Positions 4,496-45,600 of a stretch of DNA of 59,573 nt are shown here, one piece after another. Within the stretch, counting starts at the first letter, position 1. Every line of letters begins with the position of its first letter. Source of the stretch: a virus (taxonomy: Duplodnaviria; Caudoviricetes); IMG/VR virus record IMGVR_UViG_3300026125_000003, positions 1 through 59,573 of that record, one strand, 5' to 3'. Position numbers and translations under genes: made by a program. Below the pieces are notes generated by a model. The model made no database searches. It was not told where the DNA came from and saw only the letters and a program-made list of their open reading frames with translations.

Positions 4496-4622
4496 TGCCT
4501 ATCAACAAATAAGTTATTGCTGCCAAACGGTAGCTGAGATGGAGCCAGTCTTTGAATACATTAAATTACTTGAAGAAAAAATCGCACAACTTGAAGAGGA
4601 ACTCGAAAATGGAAGGGCTTGA
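4464..4622 (+). CDS. small coiled-coil hypothetical protein
   Basis: GTG start behind GGAG; fills the gap between the exonuclease and the ClpP-like gene. Confidence 0.4.
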   Translation: MNTKEETASNDAYQQISYCCQTVAEMEPVFEYIKLLEEKIAQLEEELENGRA

Positions 4623-5265
4623 GAATATCATTAAACTGGGTCAACCCAAAGGTGCGTTCACTCATCGACCTGCTGGATATACGCACGAATTTTACTTGAC
4701 CGGAACTATAACATCAGCTGAAGATTATATTGAATGGTTTGATACCATTCGTCATGCTGGCGAGAATGACCTAGTAAAGATCTATATCAACTCTGAGGGC
4801 GGTAACTTATTTACTGCTGTGCAGTTTATGCGAGTGCTCACCGACTGTCATGCTGACGTTTGGATTAGCGTAGAAGGTGCTTGTATGAGCGCTGCTACGA
4901 TGATTATGCTTTGTGGCGATGCTTATGAAATCTCCCCTCACTCTATGTTTATGTTCCATAATTACTCTGGTGGAACAGTAGGTAAGGGTGGCGAGATGTA
5001 CGACAATATTGTATATGAACGTAAATGGTCTGAGAGGTTATTGCGCGAAGTTTATAAGGATTTCTTGACCGAAGAAGAAATAGAGTCTATTCTAAATAAT
5101 AAAGACCTATGGATGGAAGGTGACGAGATTCTAGATCGCTTACGTGAAAAGGTTAAAAAGTACGAAGATCAAACTGAAGAGATTAATGGCGATGAAGGAC
5201 AACAAAGCGACCTGTTTGATGAGACCAGCGAAGAGGAGTTGTTGGGTTCTAGGGATACCAATTGA
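4609..5265 (+). CDS. ClpP-like (S14) serine protease
   Basis: INSEGG, catalytic Ser in CMSAA, His in FMFHN, Asp in KDLWM; GAGGA RBS before ATG 4609. Confidence 0.85.
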   Translation: MEGLENIIKLGQPKGAFTHRPAGYTHEFYLTGTITSAEDYIEWFDTIRHAGENDLVKIYINSEGGNLFTAVQFMRVLTDCHADVWISVEGACMSAATMIMLCGDAYEISPHSMFMFHNYSGGTVGKGGEMYDNIVYERKWSERLLREVYKDFLTEEEIESILNNKDLWMEGDEILDRLREKVKKYEDQTEEINGDEGQQSDLFDETSEEELLGSRDTN

Positions 5266-5871: not shown

Positions 5872-7692
5872 ATGAGTAAAGAAGATTTTAAAATTCTATC
5901 TGCGCGCGACCACGTTCGCATGCGCCCAGGAATGTACCTTGGTTCAACTTCGGTTGAGCAGGTAGAACGATTTGTCATGGGTAATTGGCAGAATGTCGAG
6001 TACGTTCCTGCCATAAACAAAATGATTGACGAAATCATTGACAACTCAATCGACGAAGCAATTCGAACTAACTATAAACACGCTAATCAGATCTCGGTTA
6101 CGATTAAAGGCGATACTGTAGAAATTAGCGATAATGGGCGCGGAATCCCTCAAGAAGAGGTTCTAGACGCTGAGGGTAACAAAGTCCTTCGCCCTGTTGC
6201 GGCATGGACTAAAACTAATGCGGGGACTTCTTTCAATGACGATCGAACCACTATTGGTGCCAACGGTGTTGGCTCTGCTTGTACTAACTTTATGTCAACG
6301 AGGTTTATCGGCACTACATGGCAGAATGGTAAATCTGTCACAGTCCAATGTAGCGACGGGGCGAATAAAATCTCAGTTAAAACAGGATCTAAATCTGATT
6401 CAGGTACTTCAGTCAAGTTCACTCCTGATTACAATCTGTTTAGTATTGATAGCATTTGTGACACTCACACGGTAGAACTGGTTGAAGATCGTCTGACTTC
6501 GCTTCAGATCGCCTTCCCAGAAATCAAGTTTAAGTTTAATGGGAAAAGAATCAATGCTTCGAATATTAAAAAATACGCTGGATTATTTGTGGAGGACGAT
6601 AGCGCTTCTGTTGTTGTCTCTTCTAGTGACAACGTTAGTTATTTCATTGCCAGTTCTCCTGATGGGTTCCGAACTACATCTTATATTAACGGTGTTAATA
6701 CTCGTCTCGGTGGAACCTATGTTGATTATATCGTCAATTCTGTCGTGGATATTCTTGTATCAATGGTTAAGAGAAGGCATAAGATCGATGTAGCAAAGTC
6801 TACCATAAAGAGTGGATTAACCTTCGTTCTATTTGCTCGTAACTTTAAAGATCCAAAGTATGACTCTCAAACTAAGGAAAGGCTCACGTCGAGTGTCACC
6901 GCTGTTAAAGAACACTACGATGCCGATGACTTTGAAAAGATTGCAAAGAAGATCATGGCTAGTGAGGACATCATTGGTCCGATCATCGAAGCCCAACTGG
7001 CCAAGAAGATGGCAGCTGACAAGCGGGCAGCTACGTTGGCTCAAAAGAAACTTAAGAAAGTCAAAGTCGCCAAGCATATTGCAGCTACGACTACGGATTC
7101 GACTTTGTTCTTATGTGAGGGGGACTCAGCCATTGGCTTTCTCCTTAAGGTTAGGGACCCGAAGAAAGTCGGTGGCTATCCACTACGCGGGGTAATCATG
7201 AACACCTGGGATATGAAACCCGCTGAAGTCCTTAAGAACAAAGAACTGAGCGAGCTTGTAGCGGTGCTGGGGCTTGATATCAACGACCCTGACTCAGTTG
7301 ATAATATGATTTACCAGAACGTGGCTACGCTTACTGATGCCGACCACGATGGTATCGGTCACATTATGCCTTTACTACTTGCGTTCTTCTATAAGTTCTG
7401 GCCAAGGCTGTACACTGAGAAGCGTATTCATATCGCTCGCACCCCTATCCTTATTGCTGAGAAAGGGAATAGCCAGAAGTGGTTCTACAGTTACGATGAA
7501 GCTAGTGAGTTCAAACAAACTCAGACAGGACACAAGCTGCGGTACATTAAGGGACTTGCTTCTCATACTGAAGAGGAGTACTCTAAGATAATCAACGAAC
7601 CTAATCTAGACACTGTCGTTATTGACGATGACTCCTGGTTTGATGTTGGTTACGGTAAAGATGTACAAAAACGAAAGGATTGGTTAACATAA
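5872..7692 (+). CDS. gp39: DNA topoisomerase II large subunit (gp39+gp60 fused)
   Basis: HVRMRPGMYLGS, EIIDNSIDE, DNGRGIP, GANGVG (GHKL); EGDSA, PLRG, DADHDG (TOPRIM); YIKGL. Confidence 0.95.
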   Translation: MSKEDFKILSARDHVRMRPGMYLGSTSVEQVERFVMGNWQNVEYVPAINKMIDEIIDNSIDEAIRTNYKHANQISVTIKGDTVEISDNGRGIPQEEVLDAEGNKVLRPVAAWTKTNAGTSFNDDRTTIGANGVGSACTNFMSTRFIGTTWQNGKSVTVQCSDGANKISVKTGSKSDSGTSVKFTPDYNLFSIDSICDTHTVELVEDRLTSLQIAFPEIKFKFNGKRINASNIKKYAGLFVEDDSASVVVSSSDNVSYFIASSPDGFRTTSYINGVNTRLGGTYVDYIVNSVVDILVSMVKRRHKIDVAKSTIKSGLTFVLFARNFKDPKYDSQTKERLTSSVTAVKEHYDADDFEKIAKKIMASEDIIGPIIEAQLAKKMAADKRAATLAQKKLKKVKVAKHIAATTTDSTLFLCEGDSAIGFLLKVRDPKKVGGYPLRGVIMNTWDMKPAEVLKNKELSELVAVLGLDINDPDSVDNMIYQNVATLTDADHDGIGHIMPLLLAFFYKFWPRLYTEKRIHIARTPILIAEKGNSQKWFYSYDEASEFKQTQTGHKLRYIKGLASHTEEEYSKIINEPNLDTVVIDDDSWFDVGYGKDVQKRKDWLT

Positions 7693-7752: not shown

Positions 7753-9069
7753 ATGAATCTCTATAATTTGTCAGAAATTGCGCAAAACGAAATGCGTGAC
7801 TTTGCGTTGTACACAGTCGAGTCTCGCGCTATTCCTAACATGATAGACGGGCTCAAGCCAGTCCAACGTTTCTATTTGTATAGTTCTATAGTGAACACGC
7901 CAAAGGACTTTAAGAAGGTCTCTGCGGTCTCTGGCGTTGTATCCGACTACGGTTATCAACACGGTGAGGCAAGTGCTGCTGGCGCTGGTCAGCTGATGGC
8001 AGCCACATGGAACAATAACATTTGTTTGGTTGAAGGGCGAGGTTCTTTTGGCACCCGCCAAGTACAAGCGGCAGGAGCAGCACGGTATGTTTACACTCGT
8101 TTACATTCTAACTTCTCAAAATATATTAAAGACATATCATTATCCCCAGTTCACGAGGATCCCGAGCACACTCCTCCTGCTTTCTACATTCCTGTCATAC
8201 CATTGGTTTTGGCTAACGGAACGAAAGGAATTGCTACAGGATTCGCTACGAATATTCTTCCGCGTTCCGAAAAGGACTTGATTGCGGCATGTAAAGAGTA
8301 CATTAAAACTGGTAAAATTAAGAAGCGTCTTGCGGTATCGTTCCCCGACTTTAACGGAACGACCGAGTATGATGCGGCTTCTGACCGTTTCCTTTGTCGC
8401 GGAGTATTCCAACGACCCACAAGCACTCGTATCATAATCACTGAGATTCCGTATGGTTATGACCGAGAGGCTTATGTAAAGATACTCGATAAACTTGAAG
8501 ACGATGGCGATATTATTGGCTATGAAGACGAGTGTTCTTCTGATGGGTTTAGGTTTGATATCAAGCTGCGCAACTCTACAGCAAAGGTACTCAACAGTGA
8601 CGCTAAGGTAATCTCCAAATTCAAGCTCGAGAAAGCTCACTCTGAAAACCTAACGGTAATCGATGAGAACGGCAAACTCAAAGAATACACGGATGAGCGC
8701 GACTTGATCAAAGACTTCTGCGATTACCGATCTGGCGTTTTGGATAAGCGTATCGCGCGCGAGCTCGAGAAAGCGCAGGAAAGCCAGCGTTGGTTATCAG
8801 TAAAGGCTGCCTTCATTACTGCCGTGTTAGACGATAAGATTATTTTTAAAGGTAAGACTAAAGACAAGGTAATTGATCAGATGGTGTCAGCGCAAGTGCC
8901 TATTCAGGGCGATGATGCTGAACGTTTGCTTCGTATGAATATAATGACCCTCACTAAAGAAATGGTCGACGACCTCAAGAAGCAGATTAAGGAAGCTAAA
9001 GATCAGGTGAAATATTGGGAAGGTACAGATACAACTGAGCAATTCCTTATAGACATAGATGAATTATAA
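7753..9069 (+). CDS. gp52: DNA topoisomerase II medium subunit
   Basis: RAIPNMIDGLKPVQR, YQHGEAS, catalytic AARY, NGTKGIATGFAT, ITEIPYG. Confidence 0.95.
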   Translation: MNLYNLSEIAQNEMRDFALYTVESRAIPNMIDGLKPVQRFYLYSSIVNTPKDFKKVSAVSGVVSDYGYQHGEASAAGAGQLMAATWNNNICLVEGRGSFGTRQVQAAGAARYVYTRLHSNFSKYIKDISLSPVHEDPEHTPPAFYIPVIPLVLANGTKGIATGFATNILPRSEKDLIAACKEYIKTGKIKKRLAVSFPDFNGTTEYDAASDRFLCRGVFQRPTSTRIIITEIPYGYDREAYVKILDKLEDDGDIIGYEDECSSDGFRFDIKLRNSTAKVLNSDAKVISKFKLEKAHSENLTVIDENGKLKEYTDERDLIKDFCDYRSGVLDKRIARELEKAQESQRWLSVKAAFITAVLDDKIIFKGKTKDKVIDQMVSAQVPIQGDDAERLLRMNIMTLTKEMVDDLKKQIKEAKDQVKYWEGTDTTEQFLIDIDEL

Positions 9070-9072: not shown

Positions 9073-9097
9073 TCAGTAATTAATGAAGGGGATACCC

Positions 9098-10306
9098 ATG
9101 GCTAATAAAATTGTAAAATCGTTCGGACCATACGCTGTCCTCATTGACGAGAAAGGCGTAGAGCAAGAACTATTTGAAGGGATGGAAGTATATCCAACCG
9201 ATACTGTAATTGGTGACGTTGAATACGAAGAAGTTCCGGAAGAAGTCGATGCCGAGGTTGCGGCTTTACAAGAAGCCATTCTTGCTGGTATCGATCCGAC
9301 TGAAGTAACAGAACCAACTGCCGCAGGGGCACCAGCAGCAGGGGAAGGCGTTCAGGATAGCGGTGGATCTAGCTTCGTTACCCTTGATAGGACAAACGGT
9401 GAAATAGATCCATACGCAGGATATGAAACAACGACCTTCTCTAGTGAGTTTGATAACCCAGAGGAACAGCCTCCTTTGACCATTGCCTTAGAGGAAGTTG
9501 ATACCATACCTCTACCAGTTGAAGATGAGCCAACGATATCAATTACTCCTAAAGATGAAGAACCTCCTGTTGTTCCTGACGAGCCAGTTGATGAGCCTGA
9601 ACCAGAAGAGGAACCTCCTGTTGTAGAACCTGAGGAGGAACCTGAGGATGAGGACGAAGATGATCCAGTTGATCCGCCAGTCGTTGATCCTGAACCTGAA
9701 GACGAAGAAGATGATTCAACTGGTCAGAATCCTGGTAATGATAAGGATGTAGGCAACAGCCCTCACGATGGTAATAAAGGGAACTCTAACGACGATGAGT
9801 CTCCGCTTGATAATAAAGAGGATAAAGGCGATGAACAAAGCGATAACCCTGAAGACGAATCTAGCGAAGATGAGCCTAAAGAACCCGAATCTCCTGAGGA
9901 TGGAGATGGAAGCGAAGTGGGTGAAGACAACAATTCAGAAGAGGATATTCCTGACACTTCGACTGGCCAAAATCCAGGAAATGATAAGAACGTAGGCAAC
10001 AGTAAGTTTGATGGCAACAAAGGAGCCAGTAACGACGATGAAGGTCCAAGAGATACGGATAGCACTGATAGTGATAGTAGCGGAGATGACGATGTTCTAT
10101 CTCCATCTGACCTCTTAGACGATGAAGAAACCCTCGACGACCTACTCCCGAAAGGTAAGGATAAAGAAGACAATCCTAACAAGGGTAAAGACAATGGTTG
10201 GGGTAATGGCGACGATGAAGCTCCAGGCGGAAGCCTAGATCACAACAACGCTGAAAACAACCTAGATGGATTATTGAGCCCAACTGAACAATATTATGAC
10301 AACTGA
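9098..10306 (+). CDS. LapA-type retention-module-containing acidic protein (mini T1SS-adhesin-like)
   Basis: VAALQEAILAGIDPTEVTEPTAAG...GGSSFVTLDRT..EIDP.AGYET N-terminal module; Asp/Glu/Pro linker; 2x TGQNPGNDKxVGNSxxDGNKG; NGWGNGDDEAPGGSLDHNNAEN. Confidence 0.75.
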   Translation: MANKIVKSFGPYAVLIDEKGVEQELFEGMEVYPTDTVIGDVEYEEVPEEVDAEVAALQEAILAGIDPTEVTEPTAAGAPAAGEGVQDSGGSSFVTLDRTNGEIDPYAGYETTTFSSEFDNPEEQPPLTIALEEVDTIPLPVEDEPTISITPKDEEPPVVPDEPVDEPEPEEEPPVVEPEEEPEDEDEDDPVDPPVVDPEPEDEEDDSTGQNPGNDKDVGNSPHDGNKGNSNDDESPLDNKEDKGDEQSDNPEDESSEDEPKEPESPEDGDGSEVGEDNNSEEDIPDTSTGQNPGNDKNVGNSKFDGNKGASNDDEGPRDTDSTDSDSSGDDDVLSPSDLLDDEETLDDLLPKGKDKEDNPNKGKDNGWGNGDDEAPGGSLDHNNAENNLDGLLSPTEQYYDN

Positions 10307-10445
10307 GAAAGAAGAATATACTGGACCAGAAAGGCGGAGGCGGTCTACAGAAGTAGATCGTCGTCACCCTGTTGATAGGCGCAAAAGGGTTACTCTGTTC
10401 CCCGACCGCAGAAAAGGACCAGGAAGACGCCATTACGATAAATAA
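10296..10445 (+). CDS. 49-aa Arg-rich peptide with YTGPERR and DRR repeats (candidate c-di-GMP binder), not in ORF track
   Basis: Hand translation MTTEKEEYTGPERRRRSTEVDRRHPVDRRKRVTLFPDRRKGPGRRHYDK; overlaps the upstream gene by 11 nt and fills the gap to the next promoter. Confidence 0.65.
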   Translation: MTTEKEEYTGPERRRRSTEVDRRHPVDRRKRVTLFPDRRKGPGRRHYDK

Positions 10446-10877: not shown

Positions 10878-11189
10878 ATGGAAAAGTCAACGGTCACTTA
10901 TTACGGTGAAAACCCTGTAATACATCTTCCAGAAAAACTTACAATGGCAAACTCTGCCCTTGTTAAAAAGCAGATAGCTTTACTTGGTAATGGAACCGAA
11001 TTGGTGGTGGTTGACTTAGCTGGAACGAATTTGGTGGATTCGTCTGGATTATCTGTACTAGTAGCGAATAAGGACGTTATTAAATGTTTGCTTTCGCCGA
11101 ACGTTAACGTGTTATCATTACTTGAATTGACTCGATTACACGAAATCTTTATTATTGTTAATAGCATTAAAGGGGCGTTGGATTTATAA
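10878..11189 (+). CDS. STAS-domain anti-sigma factor antagonist (SpoIIAA/RsbV-like)
   Basis: VVVDLAGTNLVDSSGLSVLV (phospho-Ser motif DSSGL) and LLELTRLHEIFII. Confidence 0.85.
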   Translation: MEKSTVTYYGENPVIHLPEKLTMANSALVKKQIALLGNGTELVVVDLAGTNLVDSSGLSVLVANKDVIKCLLSPNVNVLSLLELTRLHEIFIIVNSIKGALDL

Positions 11190-12028
11190 TGAAACTTATT
11201 GATTTTAGGGACTCTGTTTGGGGTGGTATCGTTGCCGATGCTTATGGTGCTGCCTTTGAATTTAAAGCCCCGCACCAAATACCTAAATTAGATTCTCTAG
11301 AGCAAATTAAGAGAACTCAAGTCAAGAACGTTTTCGGTCATGAGGTCGGGCAGTTCACTGACGACGGTATTCTTATGCTTTGCGCCATGAAGTCGTTCAT
11401 TGAAAGTAAAAAGTTTGAACGCAACTCTCAGATGAAACACATCGGCGACTATCTTGTCCGTGGTGTATTTACTCCGGATGGACGTTGCTTCGACGTTGGT
11501 ATGGCTACAAGCCAAGCATACAATATGTGGGAATACGGTGGTACTTATAACCCTCCGTACAACTCTGGGGGTAACGGTGTTCTTATGCGTTTGGCTCCAT
11601 ACGCATTTTGGTCTCTTCATAACGTAGCTGGCGAGGATAAAGCGGATTACTACGATAGCGTCACGACATTAACTCATGGCGGTATAGCTAACGACACCAC
11701 ATACAAGATGGGAATAATGCTCGAGTGCCTTTGGTCCGGAACTTTTAATTTCGAAGATATTGAGAATTTCCGTACCATGTCCGACGACCGAACTTCATCA
11801 GGATTCTGTGAGGGTTCTTGGAATATCGCTCTTGATATATTTGAAAAAGGTGAATCGTACGAACGTTCTGTTCTCGACGCTATTGCTAAAGGGTATGATA
11901 CAGACACAAACGCTTGTATAGTCGGGCAGCTAATTGGCACTGATATAGTACCAAGTTGTATACCTTATAAATATGAAATAGAGAACATTATTCAGGAATT
12001 TAAGGATGTCTGTACAGCAACTAATTGA
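11189..12028 (+). CDS. ADP-ribosylglycohydrolase (DraG/ARH family)
   Basis: G..ADAYGAAFEF, GQFTDDG, FDVGMAT, GNGVLMRLAP, TH, GYDTDTNACIVGQLIG. Confidence 0.9.
   Translation: MKLIDFRDSVWGGIVADAYGAAFEFKAPHQIPKLDSLEQIKRTQVKNVFGHEVGQFTDDGILMLCAMKSFIESKKFERNSQMKHIGDYLVRGVFTPDGRCFDVGMATSQAYNMWEYGGTYNPPYNSGGNGVLMRLAPYAFWSLHNVAGEDKADYYDSVTTLTHGGIANDTTYKMGIMLECLWSGTFNFEDIENFRTMSDDRTSSGFCEGSWNIALDIFEKGESYERSVLDAIAKGYDTDTNACIVGQLIGTDIVPSCIPYKYEIENIIQEFKDVCTATN
11966..11973 (+). promoter_or_regulatory. late promoter TATAAATA
   Basis: Exact consensus about 32 nt upstream of the ADP-ribosyltransferase start. Confidence 0.7.
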
Positions 12029-13772
12029 GAGCCTTGACCTTCAAAGCGTAAATGCTGCGCCAATGATGAAGGAAAAATGGACACCAACCCTTCAGTATTT
12101 TGGTGGTCATTACGAGAAAAGTGGGAAAGATTATTACTACATTTTCCGCTTTGAAAATAAATGGCATGAGGGTGGCGTAAAGATTGGCAAATATACGTGG
12201 AATATGACGTTCCATGAGATGAACCTTGGTGACCCCAAGAAGTCAACTTCCAAACGTATTTCCAAGATTAGGCACCCTCTTCAGTTTGTTGCTTGTGCGC
12301 TTAAGGCTCTTGAAAAGCACTACAATTACAATACTGTTGTATTTGGTTACATGACGTTCATGCCTCCAAAGGCTCAGAAGGTTACTAACTTCATCGGACG
12401 TGTGGCGAAGCGTTCTTCGGCTCTCCGCATTATGCAGTCTAAGACAATATCCCTTTCTGGAGTTGATGGCGGTAAACTAAACCCGAACGGAAGCATGATT
12501 TTCTTTAACACCAAAGCATTGGAAGCTGAACAAGTTTTCACTGGCGTCATGAAGAAGATCAAGAAGTTTGGTGTGTATAAGCTTGATGATATTGGCGAGA
12601 ACGATATGGCGGTCGCTGCCTTTGTTAATAATAACGAAAAAGCTGCGACCAAAACCCGAGCACTTCGTTTTAATTTCGAAGAGCTATACTACCCAGGAAC
12701 AACAACATCTTATAATAAAGAGTTTCGAGCTCCGCGCGACCATTCTCCGGATAAAATGCCTCCAGCTATGCAGGCTGGTTATGCTCAGTATGAATTCGAT
12801 AAGATGGATATACAGGATGAAGAAGCTAGGGCATATGCTATCTCAAGGTCGGTTTCTGATAATTGGTTGATCGAGGACGAGCTCCACACAGATATTAAAG
12901 ATATGGATCATATCAACGCAATCAAGGCGTTCACTGGTTCACAGTACGGAGATATGCGTAAGATGGTGTTTGGGGCATATTCTGATCCACCGTCAGGTTA
13001 TGATCAACAAACCGTTGACACCGCTATTCAAAATATGAAGCGTCTCGATTCTACGTTTGATAGTATCGGTCACAACCTTGAGTTTTACAAAGGGTATCTC
13101 TTCCGTGGCGTGGATATCAGCGGATACTCTGCTGAACAAGAATGGATTCGCCGTTTCTTGGTTGAGGATAAAACTGCTCTACCGACATATACTTCGTTCA
13201 CCACTCGAGTAGAAATTGCTTGCTCCTTTGGCAATTTCTCCGCAGGGGCAGCCCGTAACTTCTTTGGCGGTGATAAGGATAACTATCGCCAATTTAGTAG
13301 CGGTGCTGATGCCGTTGCTTGGATCGAGAGCCAGAGACCGGATAAAGAGTTGTGGAAAGGTACAACTCTGTCTTATGAAGTTAATTCTATGAATATTATC
13401 ATGTTCAGCCGTCAAGACTTTTCTCAGCTTCAGTGTGTAATACCAGGAGAGATTTCCCAATACGAAACTGAGCGAGAAATTATCCTTTCTCGAGGTACTA
13501 TGATGGAAGCTGTAAATTATTGGTTGTCTTTCTCCGATGATGGGCGGATTACAGGGTTTATTGAATATGATATTGTTGGACCACCTTCTCGCGCACGCAT
13601 GGAAGAGTTTAACTACACTGAGCCAAAAGGGTTCTCTCGCTTTATTGCTGAAGCTAAACGACCTAAGAAAGCGACTAAACCTAAGAAAGAAAAAGATCGT
13701 AAGTACACCAAAGAAGAGTTCGAAGAACTGAAGATAAAATTTGGTTCCAACCCATTCCATTATGATGGATAA
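12006..13772 (+). CDS. Alt-like ADP-ribosyltransferase (R-S-ExE class)
   Basis: C-terminal VIP2-like signature: AIKAFTGSQY, YLFRGV (R), YTSFTT (S), YETEREIILSRG (ExE). Confidence 0.75.
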   Translation: MSVQQLIESLDLQSVNAAPMMKEKWTPTLQYFGGHYEKSGKDYYYIFRFENKWHEGGVKIGKYTWNMTFHEMNLGDPKKSTSKRISKIRHPLQFVACALKALEKHYNYNTVVFGYMTFMPPKAQKVTNFIGRVAKRSSALRIMQSKTISLSGVDGGKLNPNGSMIFFNTKALEAEQVFTGVMKKIKKFGVYKLDDIGENDMAVAAFVNNNEKAATKTRALRFNFEELYYPGTTTSYNKEFRAPRDHSPDKMPPAMQAGYAQYEFDKMDIQDEEARAYAISRSVSDNWLIEDELHTDIKDMDHINAIKAFTGSQYGDMRKMVFGAYSDPPSGYDQQTVDTAIQNMKRLDSTFDSIGHNLEFYKGYLFRGVDISGYSAEQEWIRRFLVEDKTALPTYTSFTTRVEIACSFGNFSAGAARNFFGGDKDNYRQFSSGADAVAWIESQRPDKELWKGTTLSYEVNSMNIIMFSRQDFSQLQCVIPGEISQYETEREIILSRGTMMEAVNYWLSFSDDGRITGFIEYDIVGPPSRARMEEFNYTEPKGFSRFIAEAKRPKKATKPKKEKDRKYTKEEFEELKIKFGSNPFHYDG

Positions 13773-19247: not shown

Positions 19248-19610
19248 ATGAAAAAGAAAGTCCTAATAGTAGACGACGATTTAACAATCATTAATGTATA
19301 TAAACGAGTCCTCGCTAAGAACGGGTATGAACCAATAGTGATGCGTTCCCCTCGTAAAGCGGACCTTGAAAACATACCTGAAGTCGACATCGCGATAGTC
19401 GATATGGTAATGCCTTATGTAAGTGGATTTGATTTTGTGTTGTACTTACATGAAAAGAAAATCAATATACCAGTACTGATAGTGTCCGGCGATAAAGGAA
19501 TCGCCAGGATGGTTACAACTATCAGAAGGGGTGAACTAACCGATGGTTGGTTGTATAAACCTGTCGCAGGTCACCAACTAATCGCAAAGATTGAGGAAAT
19601 CCTTTCTTGA
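19248..19610 (+). CDS. stand-alone response regulator receiver (CheY-like) protein
   Basis: VLIVDDD, phospho-acceptor Asp in IVDMVMP..SGF, VSG, YKP. Confidence 0.9.
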   Translation: MKKKVLIVDDDLTIINVYKRVLAKNGYEPIVMRSPRKADLENIPEVDIAIVDMVMPYVSGFDFVLYLHEKKINIPVLIVSGDKGIARMVTTIRRGELTDGWLYKPVAGHQLIAKIEEILS

Positions 19611-20050: not shown

Positions 20051-20314
20051 ATGATTAACTTTGTAACTGGAAAACCTTACACTGGTGAAAACGCAATGAT
20101 CCTTGCGGAATCAGGTTTTTCTGACCAGCGTTTTATGACATTCAACCAAGCACGTAGCTGTGGACGCAAAGTCCTTAAAGGTTCTAAAGGCATTCAGCTG
20201 ATGCGCGTCATTGAGAAAGAAGTTCGAAACGAAAAGACTGGTAAGCTGGAAAAGAAAAAGCTGCCAAAACGTTTCACTGTATTCAATGTAGCCCAGACTG
20301 AAGAGGTGGCTTAA
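20051..20314 (+). CDS. ArdC-like ssDNA-binding N-terminal domain protein
   Basis: NFVTGKPYTGEN, FMTFNQA..GRKVLKGSKG, FTVFNVAQTE. Confidence 0.8.
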   Translation: MINFVTGKPYTGENAMILAESGFSDQRFMTFNQARSCGRKVLKGSKGIQLMRVIEKEVRNEKTGKLEKKKLPKRFTVFNVAQTEEVA

Positions 20315-28268: not shown

Positions 28269-28715
28269 CTACAGAATTTTAATTCCTAATGACTTCAACG
28301 TTTTTTCTGTCCATACGTAGAACTCTGCCCCATTATCTGCCGCGAATTCTCTCGCTGCCTTCCACTTGGATTGGTTCTTGACATAGGTTAGTTGTTCAGT
28401 GAGATAGCGTTTGGTCCTACGCTTTGGCGTCTTAGGTGGCATAGTCTCTTTGTCAGGTTTTATCTCTATCAAGTAAACTTTACCAGCCGTTGTTTTGAAG
28501 TATATGTCTATGAAATAACGGTGTCGCTTGCCATCAGTAGAACATATATATGGTATCACTATTTCTTCAGCAGCCCATTCTTTCACGTCTGGGTTGTCTT
28601 CGAGATACTTAAAGACTGCCCTCTCCCAGCTACTTCTGTAGACTACCTTATTTGGGTCGCCCTTGTACTTCTCGGGCTTCTTAAGTTTGTACGTACCTTT
28701 GTAATATTGTCCCAT
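28269..28715 (-). CDS. gp4: head completion nuclease
   Basis: KYKGDP..VYRSSWE, IPY, HRYF.D, IEIKP, N.SKWKAA, TEK.L. Confidence 0.92.
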   Translation of the reverse strand: MGQYYKGTYKLKKPEKYKGDPNKVVYRSSWERAVFKYLEDNPDVKEWAAEEIVIPYICSTDGKRHRYFIDIYFKTTAGKVYLIEIKPDKETMPPKTPKRRTKRYLTEQLTYVKNQSKWKAAREFAADNGAEFYVWTEKTLKSLGIKIL

Positions 28716-35158: not shown

Positions 35159-38100
35159 ATGGCGAATAAAGAACAAAACCGAGTACCCTCAGTCATACCT
35201 GAAGACCTTGTCAATGTTGGCGGGTCTTTCGTTGAATTCATTAAGAAATATTATGAGTTCTTGAATCAAGATGGAATGCCTTCTGACATAATCAACTCCC
35301 CTTCTATACAGAGGGATTTGACGGATGCCGCTGACAATTTCTTAGATACGGTTCACGGAGAATTTGGTTTTGGATATCCGATCAACAAAGATTCTGATCG
35401 TGTAAATATTATTCAAAATATGTCTCGCATTTACGCGACGAAAGGTTCTCTAGATTCAGTCAAAATGCTTTTCCGAATTATGTTCGGAGAAGAAGTTGAA
35501 ATTACCCTACCAAAAGATTACATCCTAAAACCTTCTTCTGGTACATGGCTCAGCGAATATTCAATTATGGCTGACCTAGCCAGCGGAGACCCTTATGAGT
35601 TAATCGGTAAATTCGCTGAAGTTGAAACTAACTTTCCTGGTTCGCCTCCACAGACTTTTGAGGTTGAGGTAAACCGTGTTGTAAACAAAGGCAACAATAC
35701 TTACCAAATATTTTTCAACCGCTCGTTCGTCGGTTTCTTTTATAATGGGAGTATCATCCGTCTCGGCGATGTTAAATTAATCCATAAACCTTCATTGAGT
35801 AAAATCCTTTCCATTCAAGATGGGGGTTCAGGTTTCAGGGTTGGTGAAACGTTTGATGTAGTTTCTTACGAACGTGATAATGCGTACAATGACGTTCTTG
35901 GTATCCCTGACATTTACTTGCGAGAGAAAATAACCAGGAGATCTCGTTGGGGCAGACGTTCGCGCACGTACTATCGCCTAATCCCTGTTGAATATACAAG
36001 AGATATAACAAACGAAAGTGTTGATATTGACGTTCGTTCTGACGGTACGTTGACTGAACAGATTCAGATTGAAACTCGTTTGGGTACGGTTGAAGTCACT
36101 AACATCATTCGCGGTAATGATAAAACCGTTCGTGTAAAATACCCTAATGGTACAGTCACTGAAGTTAATGAAGAGTTGTCTGGATACTTCAGTTACGTCA
36201 AAGTTTTGGACGGAGGTACTGGCTATACAGTTCCGCCTGAAATTTCTATAACTGGTGGCGGGAATATAACCACGCCAGCTGAACTTGATTATACGCTTAA
36301 AGACGGTTCGTTGGATGAAGTTTTCATAGATAACGCTGGCGCAGGTTATAACGATTACCCAGAAGTCACAATAGATGCCCCGTATACAGCTGGCGCTACT
36401 GCCAATTCTTTTATCACGGGCGACGCTGTTACTAGTATTGCTGTTGTTGATGGCGGTTTCGGTTACAAATACCCACCTAATGTGAATATCACAGGGGACG
36501 GCATAGGCGCTCGCGCAGAGGCTGTAATTAACTCTAGAGGCGTTGTGACGGCAATTAACGTAACTGACGGTGGTAGTGGTTACAGTTCTGCTCCGACTGT
36601 TACAATGGCTCTGCCGACCGATCAACATAACGCTATCCTAGAGCCTGTTATTGTTGATGGTGAAATCACCAGCGTTGATATTGTATATCCAGGTTACAAT
36701 TATGACCTTAACAATAGAAGAAGCTATCGTGTCACATTCGTCAGAACTAGCGCTGTTACAGGTACAGTCGATGATGGCGTAACTGCTTCCGCTAAGGTGG
36801 AGTTCGACCTAAACGGCAGCGTGACCGCTGTGGTGATGGACACGTTCGGTACAAACTACGCTTCTGCGACCGCAGGCGTTTATATACCAGCACAAAACGT
36901 GTCAGGTGGCGTTCGAGCAACTGCTACATTAAACGTTGACCATTCTACTGGTGGTATTGCTTCATTATCTTCTATATCTACTGGATACGGGTACGAAGGC
37001 GTAGATGCTATTGAATCGGGTTCTGGTACTCCAACCCGAAGAGCTTCTTACAGTGTTGAAATTACTGGCGGTGTAATAAGCGCAGTTGAAGTTGATGAAG
37101 CTGGTTCTGGATATCTATACCCTGAATTGACAGTAGAAGATTCTGGCGCTAACCCAGGATCGGGTGCTAGAATATACCCAATCTACAAAAACGGTGGGTT
37201 AGATGAAATAATTGTATTAAATGGTGGTACAGGTTATAATGTAGGAAACACTGGCATTGCTGACATCCCAGGATTCACTGTTCAACCTTCACTATTCTTC
37301 AGTTACGATTCTAATGGAACAATCACAAACGTTGAGGTGACTGATCCAGGTTCTGGTTTAGACACCCCTTCTATTTCATTATATGATGGCGCAAGCACGC
37401 CTTTAGTAACAGCAGTCGTTTATCCTCGAGTTTATCTAGGCAGTATTCTCGATGTTGAAATTTCATCTGGAGGTTCAGGTTATTCATGCCCAGAAGCTGT
37501 TGTTTCAGGGTTCACAACCGACCCCGCTTTATTAGATGTAGTCACACTAAACGGATATGTAACAGACGTTGTTATTTCAGATCCTGGGAGCCTATACACC
37601 CCAGTAATAACACTAATCTCCGCAAATAAAGTCACAGGGACTGATGCTGTAATAGTTCCAGAAACTTCAGGCGGTTCCCTCGTTGGCACTACCATCGTTG
37701 AGCGCGGAACCAATTACTCCCCTAGAGCGGTAATTAGCGTTGGCGGAAATGTTGAAATAAACGAAGTTGCTTCAATCTACCCTGTCGTTTCTTCGGTCGA
37801 CTCTTCAATAGAATCTGTTGAGGTTGTTGTACGAGGTCAAGGTTACGACCCAGTTCGAACAACTGTGACTATCGAATCCGACCAAGGTGACGGTGCTGTA
37901 ATTCAAGCTATCGTTGTTCCTGAAGGTGGCTCTGTAACCCCTAACTTGGATATCAACTGGGATGCTATTGCAGACGCCTTAACAAGTTTGGCTAATTTTG
38001 ACCCAACTGGCGAAGGAATAGTTGACACAGGGTTTGCGAACGAATTTGCGGTATTCTTAGGAAGCTTAGATACATCGGTAGAACCTCCACGTAGATACGG

Positions 38101-40357
38101 TGACTTGAATAATAGTGGTAGTGTCAGTTCTTCCGATGCGCTTGCCGCCCTCAAAGCATTAGTTGGGCTAACAGTTACTGCGGAAGTTGCGACCAACGTA
38201 GCAAAAATACAGGCTGTGTATCCTAATGTCGGAGAGTTGTCTCTGGCATTGAGCATCCTTCGACTTGCGGTAGGTCTAGATGACGATACACCGCCAGAAC
38301 AAATAGTCAACGACTGGGTTACTGGAATTCCGGAAGGCGGTGTTTATCAACGTGCTGATATAAGTCAAAGCGGAAATATTGATGCCGACGACCTACAGAA
38401 GCTCGCATATTACGCTTATTATGAATACGATCAAGCAGGCGTACACACGTTTGATGGGTTCTACTCTCAAGCAGATAAAGATAATATTGAAACGTTTTTG
38501 TTAGCTGAAGGTGGACCATTCCAAGATTACTTAAACGTGACTGAAGTAGAGTTCACTAACTTAGTTCTTGCTTCACTCCCAGACTTTGAAGATACTTCTT
38601 CTGAAAAACTGAAATCGTTCCTACTACAAGAAGACGTGGACTTCCCAGGTTTCTGTCGAGGCGACATAAACAACGATGGATTTATCGGCACAGACGATAT
38701 GATTCTGTTGATGCGTCGAGCTTCAGGTTTAGAAGTTGAGCCTCAACAATTACGTTGGATCGACGAGACCATTGCCGAACCACTTATCGGTTCGATATGG
38801 AACCCATTGCTACAACAAGGTAATGGTAGCGGAGCGAAAGCTGTTGTCCGTTCAGTCGATGTTAATGGAGCAATAACTAGCCTAGATTTCAACTCTTTTG
38901 GTTGGGATTATCCCGAAACGTTTTCTTCAAGCGTTTCGCCTAAATTACTATCGGGCACCCCAGCAACAATAGCGTACAGTAATGATATTGTAGGTATAAC
39001 GAACCCAGCTTACGTTGACCGACAAGGTTTCTTGTCAGATATAGTAAAAATTCATGATAATTTCTATTACCAAGACTATTCTTATGTAATTGATACTTCG
39101 GTCGACTTTACTGACTTTGAAGATATTGTTCTTCGTTCAGTTCATCCGGCTGGTATGAAAGTGTTTGGTCAACAAAGCATAAACGAAAGCATTGACGTTG
39201 AAGTTGGTGTCGACGAGGCTTTGGCTTTCCATTACAACCTGTTGTTCACATACTCCAACCCACTAGAATTGCCTTTAGTTGATGGCGTCGATAGCTACGG
39301 TGAAGCAGTATTCTTTGACGATAACAATGACGATGAAACCTTTGCTATCTACAAAGATTTAACCCACACATATAATCGTGGGGACAACGTAGACAATATA
39401 GTTCAAGACGAAACTTGGTACTTCACCAAAGACCTCACTAAAGATTCCGGTCGCGGTGATAATGTAGACGACATAGTTCAAGACGAAACTTGGTACTTCA
39501 CGAAAGACCTGACCAAAGAATCTGGGCGTGGCGATAATGTAGATGATATCGTTCAAGACGAAACTTGGTACTTCACCAAAGACCTTACACAAGACACTGG
39601 GCGTGGTGACGAAGTAGATAACCCTGTCGACGACGATACATTAATTATCCTTAAGGACTTATCGGAGGCTTCTGGTCGAGGCGACCGTATAGCACCAGAA
39701 AGAGTTGTTCAAGACGAAACTTGGGAATTTGAGAAAGACCTTACTGAGGCAACCAACAGGGGCGACCGTATTGCCCCAGAAAGAGTTGTTCAAGACGAAA
39801 CTTGGGAATTTGAGAAAGAACTTACTCAAGCTACTGGTCGAGGAGACGAAGTAGATAATCCAGTACAAGAAGATTACTGGAGTATGGGTAAAGCCCTTGT
39901 TGACCCAGCTGTCCTAGTTCGTGTGGAAACTCAAACTAATTTCATAACATTCGGATTGAACCCAAGCGCCAATAGGGATTCAAAGGCTGTTACAGGTTCT
40001 GTTCTTGGGAAAGACTTCATATTTGCTGAAGATAAATCAGAATTTATAGATACAATTGATAATAGCAGGTTTGACGATGTCATTGCCTTCTATAGAACTA
40101 AACTTCTTGGTCCAGAATTAATAGATCCTACAAGATTCGTTGATAATGGAACATACAATTTTGTAAATAAACCGCTCGTTTCATCTACTTCAATCCCTGG
40201 AAGTGTTGCTGAAATGAGTATAAATAAACCATATAGCAGTCCAGCTGTTACGGCAGGAAGTTCTGTCGCTGGCACTAACTCTAGCCCCTATATACAATCA
40301 GGCGGATCGTATTTCGAAGATGTATTTGATTACGCGACCGACTACCAAAACTTTTAA
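35159..40357 (+). CDS. gp7: baseplate wedge initiator gp7-like protein, greatly expanded with repeats
   Basis: F++F++KYYEFL, Y.TKGS..S..MLFR..FGE, LKPSSG.W; IHDNFYYQDYSYVI..VHPAGMKVFG; GGSGY repeats; between gp6 and gp8. Confidence 0.8.
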   Translation: MANKEQNRVPSVIPEDLVNVGGSFVEFIKKYYEFLNQDGMPSDIINSPSIQRDLTDAADNFLDTVHGEFGFGYPINKDSDRVNIIQNMSRIYATKGSLDSVKMLFRIMFGEEVEITLPKDYILKPSSGTWLSEYSIMADLASGDPYELIGKFAEVETNFPGSPPQTFEVEVNRVVNKGNNTYQIFFNRSFVGFFYNGSIIRLGDVKLIHKPSLSKILSIQDGGSGFRVGETFDVVSYERDNAYNDVLGIPDIYLREKITRRSRWGRRSRTYYRLIPVEYTRDITNESVDIDVRSDGTLTEQIQIETRLGTVEVTNIIRGNDKTVRVKYPNGTVTEVNEELSGYFSYVKVLDGGTGYTVPPEISITGGGNITTPAELDYTLKDGSLDEVFIDNAGAGYNDYPEVTIDAPYTAGATANSFITGDAVTSIAVVDGGFGYKYPPNVNITGDGIGARAEAVINSRGVVTAINVTDGGSGYSSAPTVTMALPTDQHNAILEPVIVDGEITSVDIVYPGYNYDLNNRRSYRVTFVRTSAVTGTVDDGVTASAKVEFDLNGSVTAVVMDTFGTNYASATAGVYIPAQNVSGGVRATATLNVDHSTGGIASLSSISTGYGYEGVDAIESGSGTPTRRASYSVEITGGVISAVEVDEAGSGYLYPELTVEDSGANPGSGARIYPIYKNGGLDEIIVLNGGTGYNVGNTGIADIPGFTVQPSLFFSYDSNGTITNVEVTDPGSGLDTPSISLYDGASTPLVTAVVYPRVYLGSILDVEISSGGSGYSCPEAVVSGFTTDPALLDVVTLNGYVTDVVISDPGSLYTPVITLISANKVTGTDAVIVPETSGGSLVGTTIVERGTNYSPRAVISVGGNVEINEVASIYPVVSSVDSSIESVEVVVRGQGYDPVRTTVTIESDQGDGAVIQAIVVPEGGSVTPNLDINWDAIADALTSLANFDPTGEGIVDTGFANEFAVFLGSLDTSVEPPRRYGDLNNSGSVSSSDALAALKALVGLTVTAEVATNVAKIQAVYPNVGELSLALSILRLAVGLDDDTPPEQIVNDWVTGIPEGGVYQRADISQSGNIDADDLQKLAYYAYYEYDQAGVHTFDGFYSQADKDNIETFLLAEGGPFQDYLNVTEVEFTNLVLASLPDFEDTSSEKLKSFLLQEDVDFPGFCRGDINNDGFIGTDDMILLMRRASGLEVEPQQLRWIDETIAEPLIGSIWNPLLQQGNGSGAKAVVRSVDVNGAITSLDFNSFGWDYPETFSSSVSPKLLSGTPATIAYSNDIVGITNPAYVDRQGFLSDIVKIHDNFYYQDYSYVIDTSVDFTDFEDIVLRSVHPAGMKVFGQQSINESIDVEVGVDEALAFHYNLLFTYSNPLELPLVDGVDSYGEAVFFDDNNDDETFAIYKDLTHTYNRGDNVDNIVQDETWYFTKDLTKDSGRGDNVDDIVQDETWYFTKDLTKESGRGDNVDDIVQDETWYFTKDLTQDTGRGDEVDNPVDDDTLIILKDLSEASGRGDRIAPERVVQDETWEFEKDLTEATNRGDRIAPERVVQDETWEFEKELTQATGRGDEVDNPVQEDYWSMGKALVDPAVLVRVETQTNFITFGLNPSANRDSKAVTGSVLGKDFIFAEDKSEFIDTIDNSRFDDVIAFYRTKLLGPELIDPTRFVDNGTYNFVNKPLVSSTSIPGSVAEMSINKPYSSPAVTAGSSVAGTNSSPYIQSGGSYFEDVFDYATDYQNF
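39330..39880 (+). repeat. tandem 75-81 bp coding repeats (KDLTxxxGRGDxVDxxVQDETWxF)
   Basis: GTTCAAGACGAAACTTGG recurs at 39401, 39476, 39551 and later; seven RGD-containing units. Confidence 0.9.
40219..40226 (+). promoter_or_regulatory. late promoter TATAAATA
   Basis: Exact consensus within the gp7 3' end. Confidence 0.5.
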
Positions 40358-42600: not shown

Positions 42601-45600
42601 ATGGCAGTAAATTTAGAAGGTGCGCCATATTATGACGATTACTTAGAGGATAAACAGTTTTACCGAATTCTGTTTAAACCTGGAGTTTCCGTCCAAGCGC
42701 GAGAGCTTACCCAGATGCAAACGATCATACAAAAACAGATCGAGCGTCATGGTAGGCATATTTTCAAAGATGGTGCGGCTGTATTAGACGGCACCTTTTC
42801 GTATGTAAACAACTTTAATGCGGTAAAACTTAATCCCGCAAACGGTTCTTTTATCGTAAACGAATACCTTGATCAACTAGTCGGAAAGACTATTGTTGGT
42901 CGAGAAACTGGTATTGTTGCCCGAGTGATTACTTACGAAGAGCGCACCGAGACCGACCCACCAACAATATATGTTTCGTATGTCAACGCATCTAAAGACC
43001 GTGTAACATCTACATTTGCCGATAACGAAGAATTATATTCTACAAGCGAAACTACAATCAACGGTATCGCCAAAGGGTTTACTGTAGCGGTCACTGCTAC
43101 TAATAACGCAAAAGCGGTCGCTTCATCTGCTGCTATCACCAAAGGCGTTTACTTCGTAAAAGGTCACTTTGTACTAGTAGACGAACAGCGCATTGTAATT
43201 TCTAAGTATGACAATAAACCAAACGCAAGGATTGGTCTAAAGGTCGTAGAGTCTATTGTTACTGCTTCTGAGGACGATAGCCTTCTAGATAATGCTAGTG
43301 GTACTCCTAACAACTCTGCTATAGGCGCAGACCGTTACTCTTTAGATTTGGTGCTAACGCATATTCCTCTGGATTCCACTGATGATGCCGATTTTATCGA
43401 ACTATCTCGAGTTGTTAATGGTGTCCAACAAGCTAAAGCTAAACCAACTGAATATTCAGTACTTGAAGAAAACCTTGCTCGCCGAACTTTCGACGAATCA
43501 GGGGATTACATTGTCAAACCATTCTCGTACAAGATCAGAGAATCTTTGGACGACGGTATTAATGGCGGTGTATATGAAGTGGACCAGACTACTGAAGACG
43601 GGAATACGCCTTCGAACGATTTGATGACGCTTCAAATCTCTCCAGGTAAAGCGTATGTTCGAGGTTATGAAATCGAAACAGTTGTACCTCGTTTCATTGA
43701 TATCGAAAAACCTCGAGACACGAAACGTGTTGATGGCGCAATTTCTACTATGGAAGTCGGCAACTACATTCGAGTCAATAAAGTAGTTGGTATGCCTGAT
43801 ACTGTTGGCGCTTCTTCTGAGATTCAAGACTACCCAGTCGTGAACCTTTATGACCAACCTGGAGCAACTGGTGAAATAATCGGACAGGCGCGTGTACGTG
43901 GCTTTGAATTCGATAGCGGAAACCAAGCTTCCGACAACGATGTATTCGGCGAAAACGATCAGTTCAAGCTTTTCCTATTTGATGTTAAAATAGGCACTAA
44001 ACTTGTGATGAACGATTCTCTTGTTGCATCGCAGCTTACAGTCGGTTCTTACATTACTGGTGTCACTTCTAGGTCAAGTGGTTATGTCCGCGAGATCGAT
44101 ACTGACAACAACGTTATTTGGGTCAACTCAGCCACAGGTAAATTCATTACTGGTACTAATGGCGAGAACATAACTTCAAATAATAGCGCAGAAACTAATA
44201 ACCTAGTCACAAACTCCGGTTCAACAGCCTTGAAGATTTCTTCTGCTGTTTACAATACGTTTGAATATGTTAAAAGTTTTTCTCTTTCTGACGCAGAAGA
44301 CGTTGCTTCAGGCGGTCTTGGTGCTGGGGCAACAACATTCCAAGCTGATTCTGTACTAGAACGTTCAACTCAAATCTCAGGGTTTGTGTCAACCACGGCT
44401 GCTTCGGCAACAATCAACGGCTTCAATACCCTATTTGAGCAAGACCTTCGTGTCGGTGACGCAATTTCTATACCTTCTGGGGCTGGTGGCGTTAATCAGA
44501 TATTCTATATCTCTCAGATTAATTCTAACACCAGTTTGACAATTGATGCCGCAACATCAACTACTACCGAAAACCCAGACGGACTACCAGATGTAAGCGT
44601 ATCTTCTGTCGCTGCTTATCGCAGACGTTCAGTACTGAACGACCAAGATAAAAACATCTTGGTTCGCAAACTTGCTACCGATTACATCTCAACGCTTAAA
44701 CCAGACGGAATCAACGTAAATACAATTGCGGCTACAGTTCGCGAAGAATTCGTTGAATCTGCTAATGAAGGTAAAATTTCAATAAGCGCGGCAGGTAGAT
44801 TCTCTGCTGAATCCAACTACAACTACCAAGTTGTTGTATTAAATCCTGGTGTTGGGGCTTCTGCTTCTGCTGGCGATTATGTTAACATGGAAAATGCTGG
44901 TGTGTCAATTACTGGTGCCGATACTGGTAGCAGCAAAATTGAAATCAATGTACCAGTTAGCATTATCGGTTCTGGTTCTTCTGTACCAGTAAAAGTAATC
45001 GCAACTTACACCAAAACCAATGCTGCTCCGAAATCTAAGAGTGCAGCAATCAATAAACTATTGGTCCGTAACATCTCTGGAGTTGCTGACTATGGTACTA
45101 GCACAAACCATAGAGATTGGTCTCTTGGTACTGCTGACGTTTATAAGTTGTTGGCTGTGTATGATTCTGGTACTGTCGGAACTGCCCCTACTATTCCGAA
45201 CATCGTATACAACAATTTGTCTGGAAGTCAGTTCCAGCAAGGCGAGCTCCTTGTAGGTGAAGATTCTGGCGCAGTTGCTATGTACATTGAAAATGTCAAT
45301 AGTACATTAAGAGTTGTGCCTCAGAGTAACACCAGATTCGTTGCTGGCGAGTTAGTTACTGCCCAATCGAGCGGTATCACTTTCAACGTCACTTCTTACG
45401 AAAAGGGAAGTACTAATATTACTGGCCAGTTCCTTCTTGACACTGGACAGCGCGATAACATATACGATATAGCAAAACTTGTTAAGAAGAACGTTTCGTT
45501 CAAACCTACTGGCGATGTTGTTGTATTGTTTAAATCGTTCTCTCATGGTACTGGCGATTTCTTTACTGTCGACTCTTACTTCGGTTCTGTTGATTACTCT

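Follow-up and report, generated by a model that had tools for sequence, protein, structure and literature searches.

A virus-borne, truncated LapA-type retention-module protein in a marine T4-like phage

Introduction

Why should a phage encode the anchoring end of a bacterial adhesin? This question is raised by an open reading frame (ORF) of the virus record IMGVR_UViG_3300026125_000003 (Duplodnaviria; Caudoviricetes), the 59,573 nucleotides (nt) of which were analysed as a whole and are referred to here as the window. Its product, named P0001, is 402 amino acids (aa) long and had been described, in a reading made from the letters of the DNA without database searches (hereafter the sequence-only reading), as a miniature LapA-like retention-module protein. 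Among the switches by which many Proteobacteria pass from an attached to a free-living life and back, the Lap system, associating a giant adhesin with the channel LapE, the protease LapG and the cyclic di-GMP (c-di-GMP) receptor LapD, is understood best. In the model outlined for this system, the adhesin exits LapEBC C-terminus first and its folded N-terminal module is blocked at the TolC-like pore, in which an unstructured stretch resides, and LapG cuts at a di-alanine when c-di-GMP falls (10.1101/198937, PMC5550230).

As presented here, it is well supported at the sequence level that P0001 is a virus-borne truncated retention-module protein rather than a full member of the repeats-in-toxin (RTX) adhesin class. 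Among the titles and abstracts listed for the retention-module, LapG and phage literature, no virus-encoded retention module is described, and no virus was seen there to encode another part of the Lap system. Besides, prophage-derived molecules plugging into the LapG circuitry are presented in a 2026 review as neither built nor tested (PMC13603594).

A reduced N-terminal retention module

The NCBIfam profile retention_LapA (NF033682, "retention module-containing protein") matches residues 47-113 of P0001 with 66 bits (E 4e-18) for a curated cut-off of 50, and the record itself with 64.1 bits in a six-frame search; the check proposed in the sequence-only reading, i.e. a hidden Markov model (HMM) search against the retention-module family, thus came out positive. 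All eight phage-family proteins tested pass the same profile (50.6-70.2 bits), being matched just from profile position 64-83 onward, and the two cellular controls, namely the adhesins of Neptuniibacter and Marinobacterium, are matched over positions 2-144 with 111-116 bits. An exhaustive phmmer search with residues 1-121 against 1.84 billion representatives returned 263 proteins at E<=1e-3. Bar five small relatives, the matches listed align residues ~47-121 of P0001 with positions ~80-150 or 157-224 of proteins reaching up to 5,693 aa, and many of these large proteins bear RTX repeats together with typical adhesin ends. In the PDB, the sole sequence match was the anchoring domain of MpIBP (5ix9; E 0.012, residues 31-83).

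The architecture of the module was compared in an alignment of 32 rows, comprising 3 phage and 29 cellular adhesin N-termini. In the cellular adhesins, a first beta unit (A) and a second one (B) are followed by an acidic linker, a helix, a DP turn, a [T/P]AAG site, a Gly-rich stretch and a conserved GGxSF...RT..EVDP.AGY.T segment. Of these parts, the phage module retains unit A as well as the helix with DP and TAAG, and it has the conserved segment in the form GGSSFV...AGY.T, but it is devoid of unit B (about 35-40 aa). Ten residues are invariant in 32/32 rows, namely G20, G28, Q58, G64, D66, P67, A75, A76, G77 and T111. In P0001, the module lies at the extreme N-terminus, from residue 4, and is followed by an unstructured stretch.

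The signature of a LapG substrate, as outlined in the literature, consists of a targeting helix, a conserved DP and a scissile di-alanine within [T/A/P]AAG (PMC13090378). These elements are all found in P0001 (3/3), as a predicted helix (48-62), D66-P67 and T74-A75-A76-G77, the last of which stands exactly where the sequence-only reading had placed it, and a second PAAG occurs at residues 79-82. Judged by sequence, the N-terminus of P0001 is truly homologous to the retention module of the LapA type, in a cut-down form. The LapA-like nature claimed beforehand holds as to homology with NF033682, but the module is incomplete since the second beta unit is absent in the alignment.

Compared to LapA from Pseudomonas fluorescens (module residues 1-125), P0001 likewise displays a module passing NF033682 at the extreme N-terminus, with a beta unit, a helix, DP, TAAG, a Gly-rich and a conserved segment, then an unstructured stretch. 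In contrast, it has 402 aa for ~5,200 aa in LapA, and shows no second beta unit, no extender or RTX repeats and no recognisable LapA-type C-terminal domain; it is further phage-encoded, with no lap genes nearby in the window.

Predicted structure of the module

AlphaFold2 (AF2) was run on the whole of P0001 as well as on residues 1-125 with the 32-row alignment. In the former model, order is confined to residues 1-62, and the predicted local distance difference test (pLDDT) value is below 50 for nearly everything past ~residue 70 (273 of the 402 residues), which is consistent with disorder of the protein past about residue 70. In the latter, a confident five-stranded domain is predicted (pLDDT 89-94 for residues 1-40), with a helix at residues 50-62. 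A counterpart of the targeting helix is thereby seen in both models (48-62 and 50-62, respectively).

When the AF2 domain was searched with Foldseek against 350,542 chains, the RIN domain of MpIBP from Marinomonas primoryensis (PDB 5ix9) ranked first (E 0.084), and it was alone in reaching Z>=5 upon VIA re-alignment of 492 chains (Z 5.8, root-mean-square deviation 3.1 A, 51 residues aligned). This best structural match, which covers residues 1-51, is weak by itself but in keeping with what the sequences show. The phage domain has ~45 residues; the RIN beta-sandwich has 76 and is judged too bulky to go through the TolC pore.

An acidic passenger with short recurrent motifs

The listed ORF runs from an upstream ATG at 9083 (9083..10306, plus strand; 407 aa), and the 402-aa form begins at the ATG at 9098. 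The latter is the better predicted start because GAAGGGG lies 6 nt upstream and because the first residues of the homologue P0002, MNKIVKSFGP, line up with this start. The start, coordinates, TAAG, the two repeats and the NGWGNGDD...NNAEN motif given in the sequence-only reading were all found in place, and its description of the remainder of the protein as acidic, Pro-rich and disordered agrees with the AF2 model of the whole protein and with a composition of 127 D+E, 19 K+R, 44 P and no Cys. The net charge of the passenger, i.e. the part that follows the module, is about -108. No hydrophobic segment is present, the top 19-residue Kyte-Doolittle mean being 0.73, and there is no candidate signal peptide or membrane span. 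P0001 as a whole matches no Pfam and no PHROG family.

The passenger opens with a Pro/Glu-rich stretch of 90 residues (22 P and 40 D+E), which is a candidate channel-spanning spacer; Pro- or Thr-rich stretches are found at the same position in cellular adhesins (L009, L037 and L016). Further on, two copies of a repeat remain alike at the DNA level, 9715-9759 and 9958-10002 being 84% identical and 9767-9798 and 10010-10041 78% identical.

Close to the C-terminus lies a GN-rich motif, the pattern of which reads NGWGNGD(D/Q).APG.SL.HNNAEN and which belongs to no recognised family. P0001, P0002, P0003 and P0006 have in common their acidic character and this motif. Beyond the phage family, the motif was found in two TadE/TadG-like pilus-assembly proteins only, P0151 (223 aa) and P0152 (691 aa), one of which is from a Thalassococcus and likewise carries it C-terminally, the other exhibiting vWA and Tad domains. 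In these two TadE/TadG-like Flp-pilus proteins, a Cys stands where the phage motif has Asp. No protein larger than 704 aa was found to bear this C-terminal motif, and literature on its core yielded flavivirus fusion-peptide papers only. The sequence-only reading had linked the NGWGNGDD motif to secreted Ca-binding proteins, for which no confirmation was obtained. By its occurrence, the motif seems to be a short module, as yet without a name, that exported proteins carry.

Regarding the very end of the protein, a tail of the form ...LDG(L/I)L..(P)EQ.YD is common to P0001, P0002 and P0006, and this tail, NLDGLLSPTEQYYDN in P0001, is a possible secretion signal. Residues 200-402 gave no usable match in the ESM Atlas, and the last 72 aa were not found in 301 genomes of the order of the Marinobacterium metagenome-assembled genome (MAG; G001) considered below. 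The parts of P0001 are listed in Table 1.

Table 1. Position of P0001, its parts and the main landmarks of the window
Feature	Position	Strand	Basis or remark
Source record			IMG/VR virus record, 59,573 bases, estimated 33% complete
Gene of the 402-aa phage protein (P0001)	9098..10306	+	ORF listing, upstream motif, homologues P0002-P0006
Residues 1-46, predicted small all-beta domain, first beta unit of the plug (RIN-like) domain	9098..9235	+	AF2, alignment, 5ix9
Residues 48-62, predicted helix, counterpart of the LapG 'targeting helix'	9239..9283	+	AF2 models; Q58, A60 conserved
D66-P67, conserved DP turn	9293..9298	+	Invariant 32/32
T74-A75-A76-G77, di-alanine LapG-type cleavage motif	9317..9328	+	A75, A76, G77 invariant in alignment
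Residues 89-114, GGSSFV..RT.GE.DP.AGY.T.TF, after the cleavage site	9362..9439	+	End of the NF033682 profile
Residues 116-205, Pro/Glu-rich, predicted disordered	9443..9712	+	AF2, composition
Repeat copy 1, residues 208-234, TGQNPGNDK.VGNS..DGNKG.SNDDE	9719..9799	+	
Repeat copy 2, residues 289-315	9962..10042	+	
Residues 366-387, NGWGNGDDEAPGGSLDHNNAEN motif	10193..10258	+	Common to P0002, P0003, P0006 and two TadE/G-like proteins
Residues 388-402, C-terminal tail NLDGLLSPTEQYYDN	10259..10303	+	Conserved in P0002 and P0006
Topoisomerase II large subunit, gp39-like	5872-7692		
Topoisomerase II medium subunit, gp52-like	7753-9069		
Long baseplate block (gp5, PAAR, gp25, gp6, gp53, gp8)			Pfam

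A small phage family and its cellular relatives

Proteins in which the compact module starts at residue 1-5 are few and were met on contigs of uncultured viruses only. From the protein collections came P0002 (280 aa), P0003 (384 aa), P0004 (141 aa, possibly partial), P0005 (670 aa) and P0006 (516 aa), to which contigs from IMG/VR and metagenomes add members of 946, 813, 565 and 602 aa. In the larger members, Thr-rich repeats occur together with a Big_9 immunoglobulin-like (Ig) domain and a beta-rich C-terminal domain. The contigs with family members carry genes for NifU-like and iron-sulfur (Fe-S) auxiliary proteins, a head-tail adaptor, an HNH endonuclease and a virion structural protein family, and those bearing compact-module proteins look viral from this gene content. 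On two of them (L085 and L087), the family gene lies within a few kilobases (kb) of genes for the head-tail adaptor phrog_211 and the virion structural protein phrog_3758. As a separate observation, the viral contigs of the 946-aa member (L002, 3388-7734 and 12825-13376) encode a sulfotransferase, a NifU-like protein and a peroxiredoxin, as well as a succinate-dehydrogenase-type Fe-S protein (Fer2_3/Fer4), all four being auxiliary metabolic genes.

The compact form was found in 0/65 genome loci; two of these, from Pseudomonas (L024) and Nitrospira (L067), align from residue 3-4 yet have full-length modules. Neither the whole of P0001 nor residues 1-121 gave a match by tblastn in 50,697 GenBank phage records, no module match was obtained in the 72,556 plasmids of PLSDB, and PADLOC returned no match. 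A scan of viral contigs with P0001 alone recovered none, whereas the alignment-based scan did recover members.

On the cellular side, the closest relatives of the family module are the adhesins of Marinobacterium and Neptuniibacter, the nearest being that of a Marinobacterium MAG (L005; 63% identity). By decreasing nearness, modules from Marinobacterium, other Oceanospirillaceae, Neptuniibacter and Neptunomonas are followed by those from Methylophaga, Pseudomonas, Vibrio and Marinomonas. These closest cellular adhesins exhibit a complete module, RTX repeats and a ...LLDNNNIDDGIN-type end, and the passenger of P0001, with its acidic spacer and GN-rich motifs, has no counterpart there. The 1,559-aa RTX adhesin from Neptuniibacter sp. 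QD37_6 (L082:1294-5973, minus strand) associates a full module with six Thr-rich repeats, a Big_9-type domain, RTX repeats and a typical adhesin end; its Thr-rich repeats are of the same kind as those of the 946-aa phage protein, and the Big_9-type domains are 46% identical. Because the module, the Thr-rich repeats and the Big_9-type domain are held in common, at least the 946-aa branch of the family is clearly a captured and trimmed host adhesin of the Neptuniibacter RTX type.

In a tree of the module core (67 columns), which comprised 9 rows from phages and 18 from cells, another 11 cellular rows being left out, the phage sequences group with those of Marinobacterium, Neptunomonas and Neptuniibacter without resolution, a result compatible with one origin as well as with several. 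A LapG-type protease (PF06035) is encoded in 5/5 genomes holding the closest modules and, in the Marinobacterium MAG (G001), its gene adjoins a LapD-like gene.

What the protein may do in the infected cell

A pore plug, a LapG decoy or a protein displayed at the surface had been put forward in the sequence-only reading, and each of the three stays a hypothesis. The reading retained, tentatively, is that of a protein derived from a host adhesin and acting on the host Lap system, that is LapG and a LapE-type channel. P0001 would enter the host adhesin's type 1 secretion system (T1SS), C-terminus first, and its Pro/Glu-rich spacer would come to sit in the TolC-like (LapE-type) channel, leaving the N-terminal module on the periplasmic side, open to binding or cutting by LapG. 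It would thereby occupy adhesin channels and/or LapG and set an acidic brush on the infected cell, in which the holding and release of adhesin and the access to the surface would be altered. The order of the parts in P0001, including the 90-residue spacer, fits the published adhesin model. Engineering provides a parallel, since an N272+C235 mini-LapA, ~10% of the full length, is described as displayed and released by LapG (10.1101/358705). Mini-LapA is alike in size (~500 aa) and in logic, with an N-terminal retention module followed by a short cargo, but it keeps the 235-aa C-terminal secretion domain of LapA, which has no demonstrable counterpart in the phage protein. In its broader form, according to which lytic marine phages use the anchor end of a captured adhesin together with the host T1SS and the LapG/c-di-GMP switch, lodging in the LapE-type channel to take control of the infected cell's surface, the proposal is possible but on balance doubtful. 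A protein lodged in this way could hold the cell near fresh hosts, put an end to the export of adhesin or hide the channel from rival phages.

Several findings weigh against an action on the Lap system. With respect to the module, the NF033682 match spans positions 82-144 of 145 and leaves positions 1-81 uncovered because unit B is absent from the phage module; this unit is missing in 3/3 phage rows and complete in 28/29 cellular rows, being partial in the remaining one (L059). In LapA, deletion of D31-A95 is reported to abolish retention (10.1101/198937), and the RIN domain of MpIBP is thought to be retained by its size, i.e. 24x28x26 A for a pore of ~20 A (PMC5550230). Because it is about half the size of this domain thought to be retained by bulk, the phage plug might slip through the pore, or serve just as a docking surface for LapG. 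Besides, the 565- and 602-aa members (L087:4291-5988 and L138:1759-3567) differ from all others in having TSVG at the place of TAAG, though their helix, their DP and their post-site segment are intact; this lineage may be a natural uncleavable variant.

With respect to export, P0001 contains 0 GGxGxD nonapeptides, has no RTX match in Pfam or NCBIfam and is devoid of extender (Ig-like) repeats in Pfam and AF2, as the sequence-only reading had rightly noticed in reporting neither Ig-like nor RTX repeats. An HMM for which 53 adhesins with RTX repeats supplied their last 35 aa matched no family C-terminus when run against the family and all window ORFs, and Smith-Waterman comparison of five family tails with the 53 adhesin ends, using 300 shuffles each, placed none above chance; for the P0001 tail, the observed maximum, top-10 and mean scores were reached by 161, 133 and 114 of 300 shuffles, respectively. 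A pattern anchored at the protein end is found in 42/53 RTX adhesin ends, 19/327 control ORF ends and 4/6 family ends including P0001, with P0003 and P0005 failing it (2/6), and is just a hint of a secretion signal because it was designed after both sets had been seen. With respect to the system itself, there is no LapG in the window, none of the 53 ORFs scanned encodes a T1SS component, and there are no lapEBC or lapGD genes to which a linkage could be drawn in this 59.6-kb record, which represents ~33% of the phage genome. The hosts, finally, are candidates proposed from the closest modules.

Instead of being displayed, P0001 might trap LapG or jam the Lap system, its helix, DP and TAAG occupying LapG or its post-site segment blocking secretion, with an incidental passenger; the adhesin of the infected cell would then stay on the surface or its export would stop. 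This is unlikely, yet it draws on the recognition elements being the best conserved part of the family and on the TSVG lineage, which keeps them but for the scissile pair, as an uncleavable binder would; in this respect, substitution of the di-alanine is reported to block the cleavage of adhesin reporters (PMC13090378). For this explanation as for the reading retained, modelling of P0001 residues 1-125 in complex with the Marinobacterium LapG points weakly to binding, with a score of 0.38 (runs 0.36, 0.42 and 0.38) when the best of three controls scored 0.00. The runs, for which the authors' own alignments served as input, had a contact agreement of at least 57% and a partner pLDDT of at least 58. 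The pass mark is reached by 58/80 solved complexes and 2/110 mismatched pairs, a pass with a score of 0.60 or less being seen in just 7 of the 80 solved complexes and in both passing mismatches. Conversely, LapG is periplasmic and P0001 has neither a signal peptide nor a hydrophobic segment, so export of the T1SS type would still be needed, and a decoy would have no need of the adhesin-type repeats and Ig domains seen in passengers of 280-946 aa. Such variable passengers, from their sequences, seem more suited to display than to mere inhibition.

These same passengers lend themselves to another explanation, less likely still, in which the captured fragment is an adhesin borne by the virion or released at lysis, sticking particles to the habitat of the host or decorating the virion, its N-terminal remnant having been turned into an attachment piece, without any interplay with the Lap system. 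The larger members have adhesin repeats, Big_9 and a beta-rich C-terminal domain and are devoid of RTX repeats and of the adhesin's own C-terminus, and the structural genes phrog_211 and phrog_3758 are near neighbours on L085 and L087. However, this gives no reason for the conservation, nearly as in cellular adhesins, of the helix, of DP, of the di-alanine and of the post-site segment; in the window, moreover, the gene stands among replication and host-takeover genes, outside the baseplate block, and P0001 has no match to a PHROG structural family.

Improbable, finally, is a cytoplasmic acidic protein, e.g. a DNA mimic or a host-takeover factor, of which the N-terminus would be the decaying remnant of a captured adhesin gene. 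The excess of D+E over K+R (127 vs. 19), the early-type surroundings of the gene and the export signal sought in vain by adhesin-end profile and shuffle test are in line with it, but the part common to the family is the N-terminal module, other members are Thr-rich rather than acidic, and a remnant would not retain invariant residues in at least nine diverged phage sequences. A chance TAAG within a BapA-type prefix domain is hardly conceivable, as NF033682 is itself above cut-off and the di-alanine column is invariant in 32 rows; the BapA prefix-like domain (PF22783/NF033677) gave no match at E<=10 in Pfam or NCBIfam.

Genome context and neighbouring genes

The affiliation of the window to T4-like myoviruses comes from Pfam matches to RNase H, PhoH, the topoisomerase II subunits, gp59, gp32 and a baseplate block. 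The gp32 is nearest to that of marine T4-like phages, with 54-57% identity to cyanophages and to the Methylophilales phage Melnitz, and gp52 is merely 44% identical to the closest cultured phages; on these grounds, the source is taken as a marine T4-like phage not yet cultured. The 59.6-kb window yielded no tRNA genes. The gene of P0001 comes right after the topoisomerase II genes and in their orientation, with replication-type neighbours and outside the baseplate block, a position which suggests early or middle expression.

Immediately downstream, a 49-aa very basic ORF (10296-10445, plus strand; 17 K+R, repeated ERR/DRR-type motifs) has its ATG 8 nt ahead of the stop codon of the acidic gene and matches neither PHROG nor PADLOC; together, the two genes may form a translationally coupled acid/base pair. 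The following genes on the plus strand encode a stand-alone STAS domain protein of the anti-sigma-antagonist type in early-type surroundings (10878-11189), an ADP-ribosylglycohydrolase (PF03747; 11189-12028) and, overlapping the latter by 23 nt at its start, a 588-aa Alt-like ADP-ribosyltransferase (phrog_802; 12006-13772), the last two being from their family matches an eraser and a writer of ADP-ribosylation paired in one phage.

Elsewhere on the plus strand are a ClpP-like protease (4609-5265), a stand-alone response-regulator receiver domain, again in early-type surroundings (19248-19610), and an 87-aa ArdC N-terminal-like fragment (20051-20314). A TnsA-like endonuclease domain (28269-28715, minus strand) occurs just upstream of the plus-strand baseplate block. 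Two large proteins of the baseplate/fibre region, both on the plus strand, have 1,732 aa with a baseplate-wedge match (35159-40357) and 2,431 aa with DUF4815 (42601-49896).

Significance

Taken at the level of sequence homology, P0001 suggests that the phage interferes with the attachment machinery of its host. The family also provides a natural experiment on the minimal retention module, with a half-size plug and a di-alanine-free variant; if the proposed action on the Lap system is true, evolution would have fitted the version open to cleavage (TAAG) and the one closed to it (TSVG) to different outcomes. Beyond the module itself, it offers a clue to the hosts of uncultured T4-like phages, which would be Oceanospirillaceae of the Marinobacterium/Neptuniibacter type. 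Should the proposal hold, this family, which retains just those adhesin parts that LapG recognises and that lie nearest the channel, would represent a novel type of auxiliary or host-takeover gene, tying phage infection to biofilm attachment and dispersal in marine bacteria.

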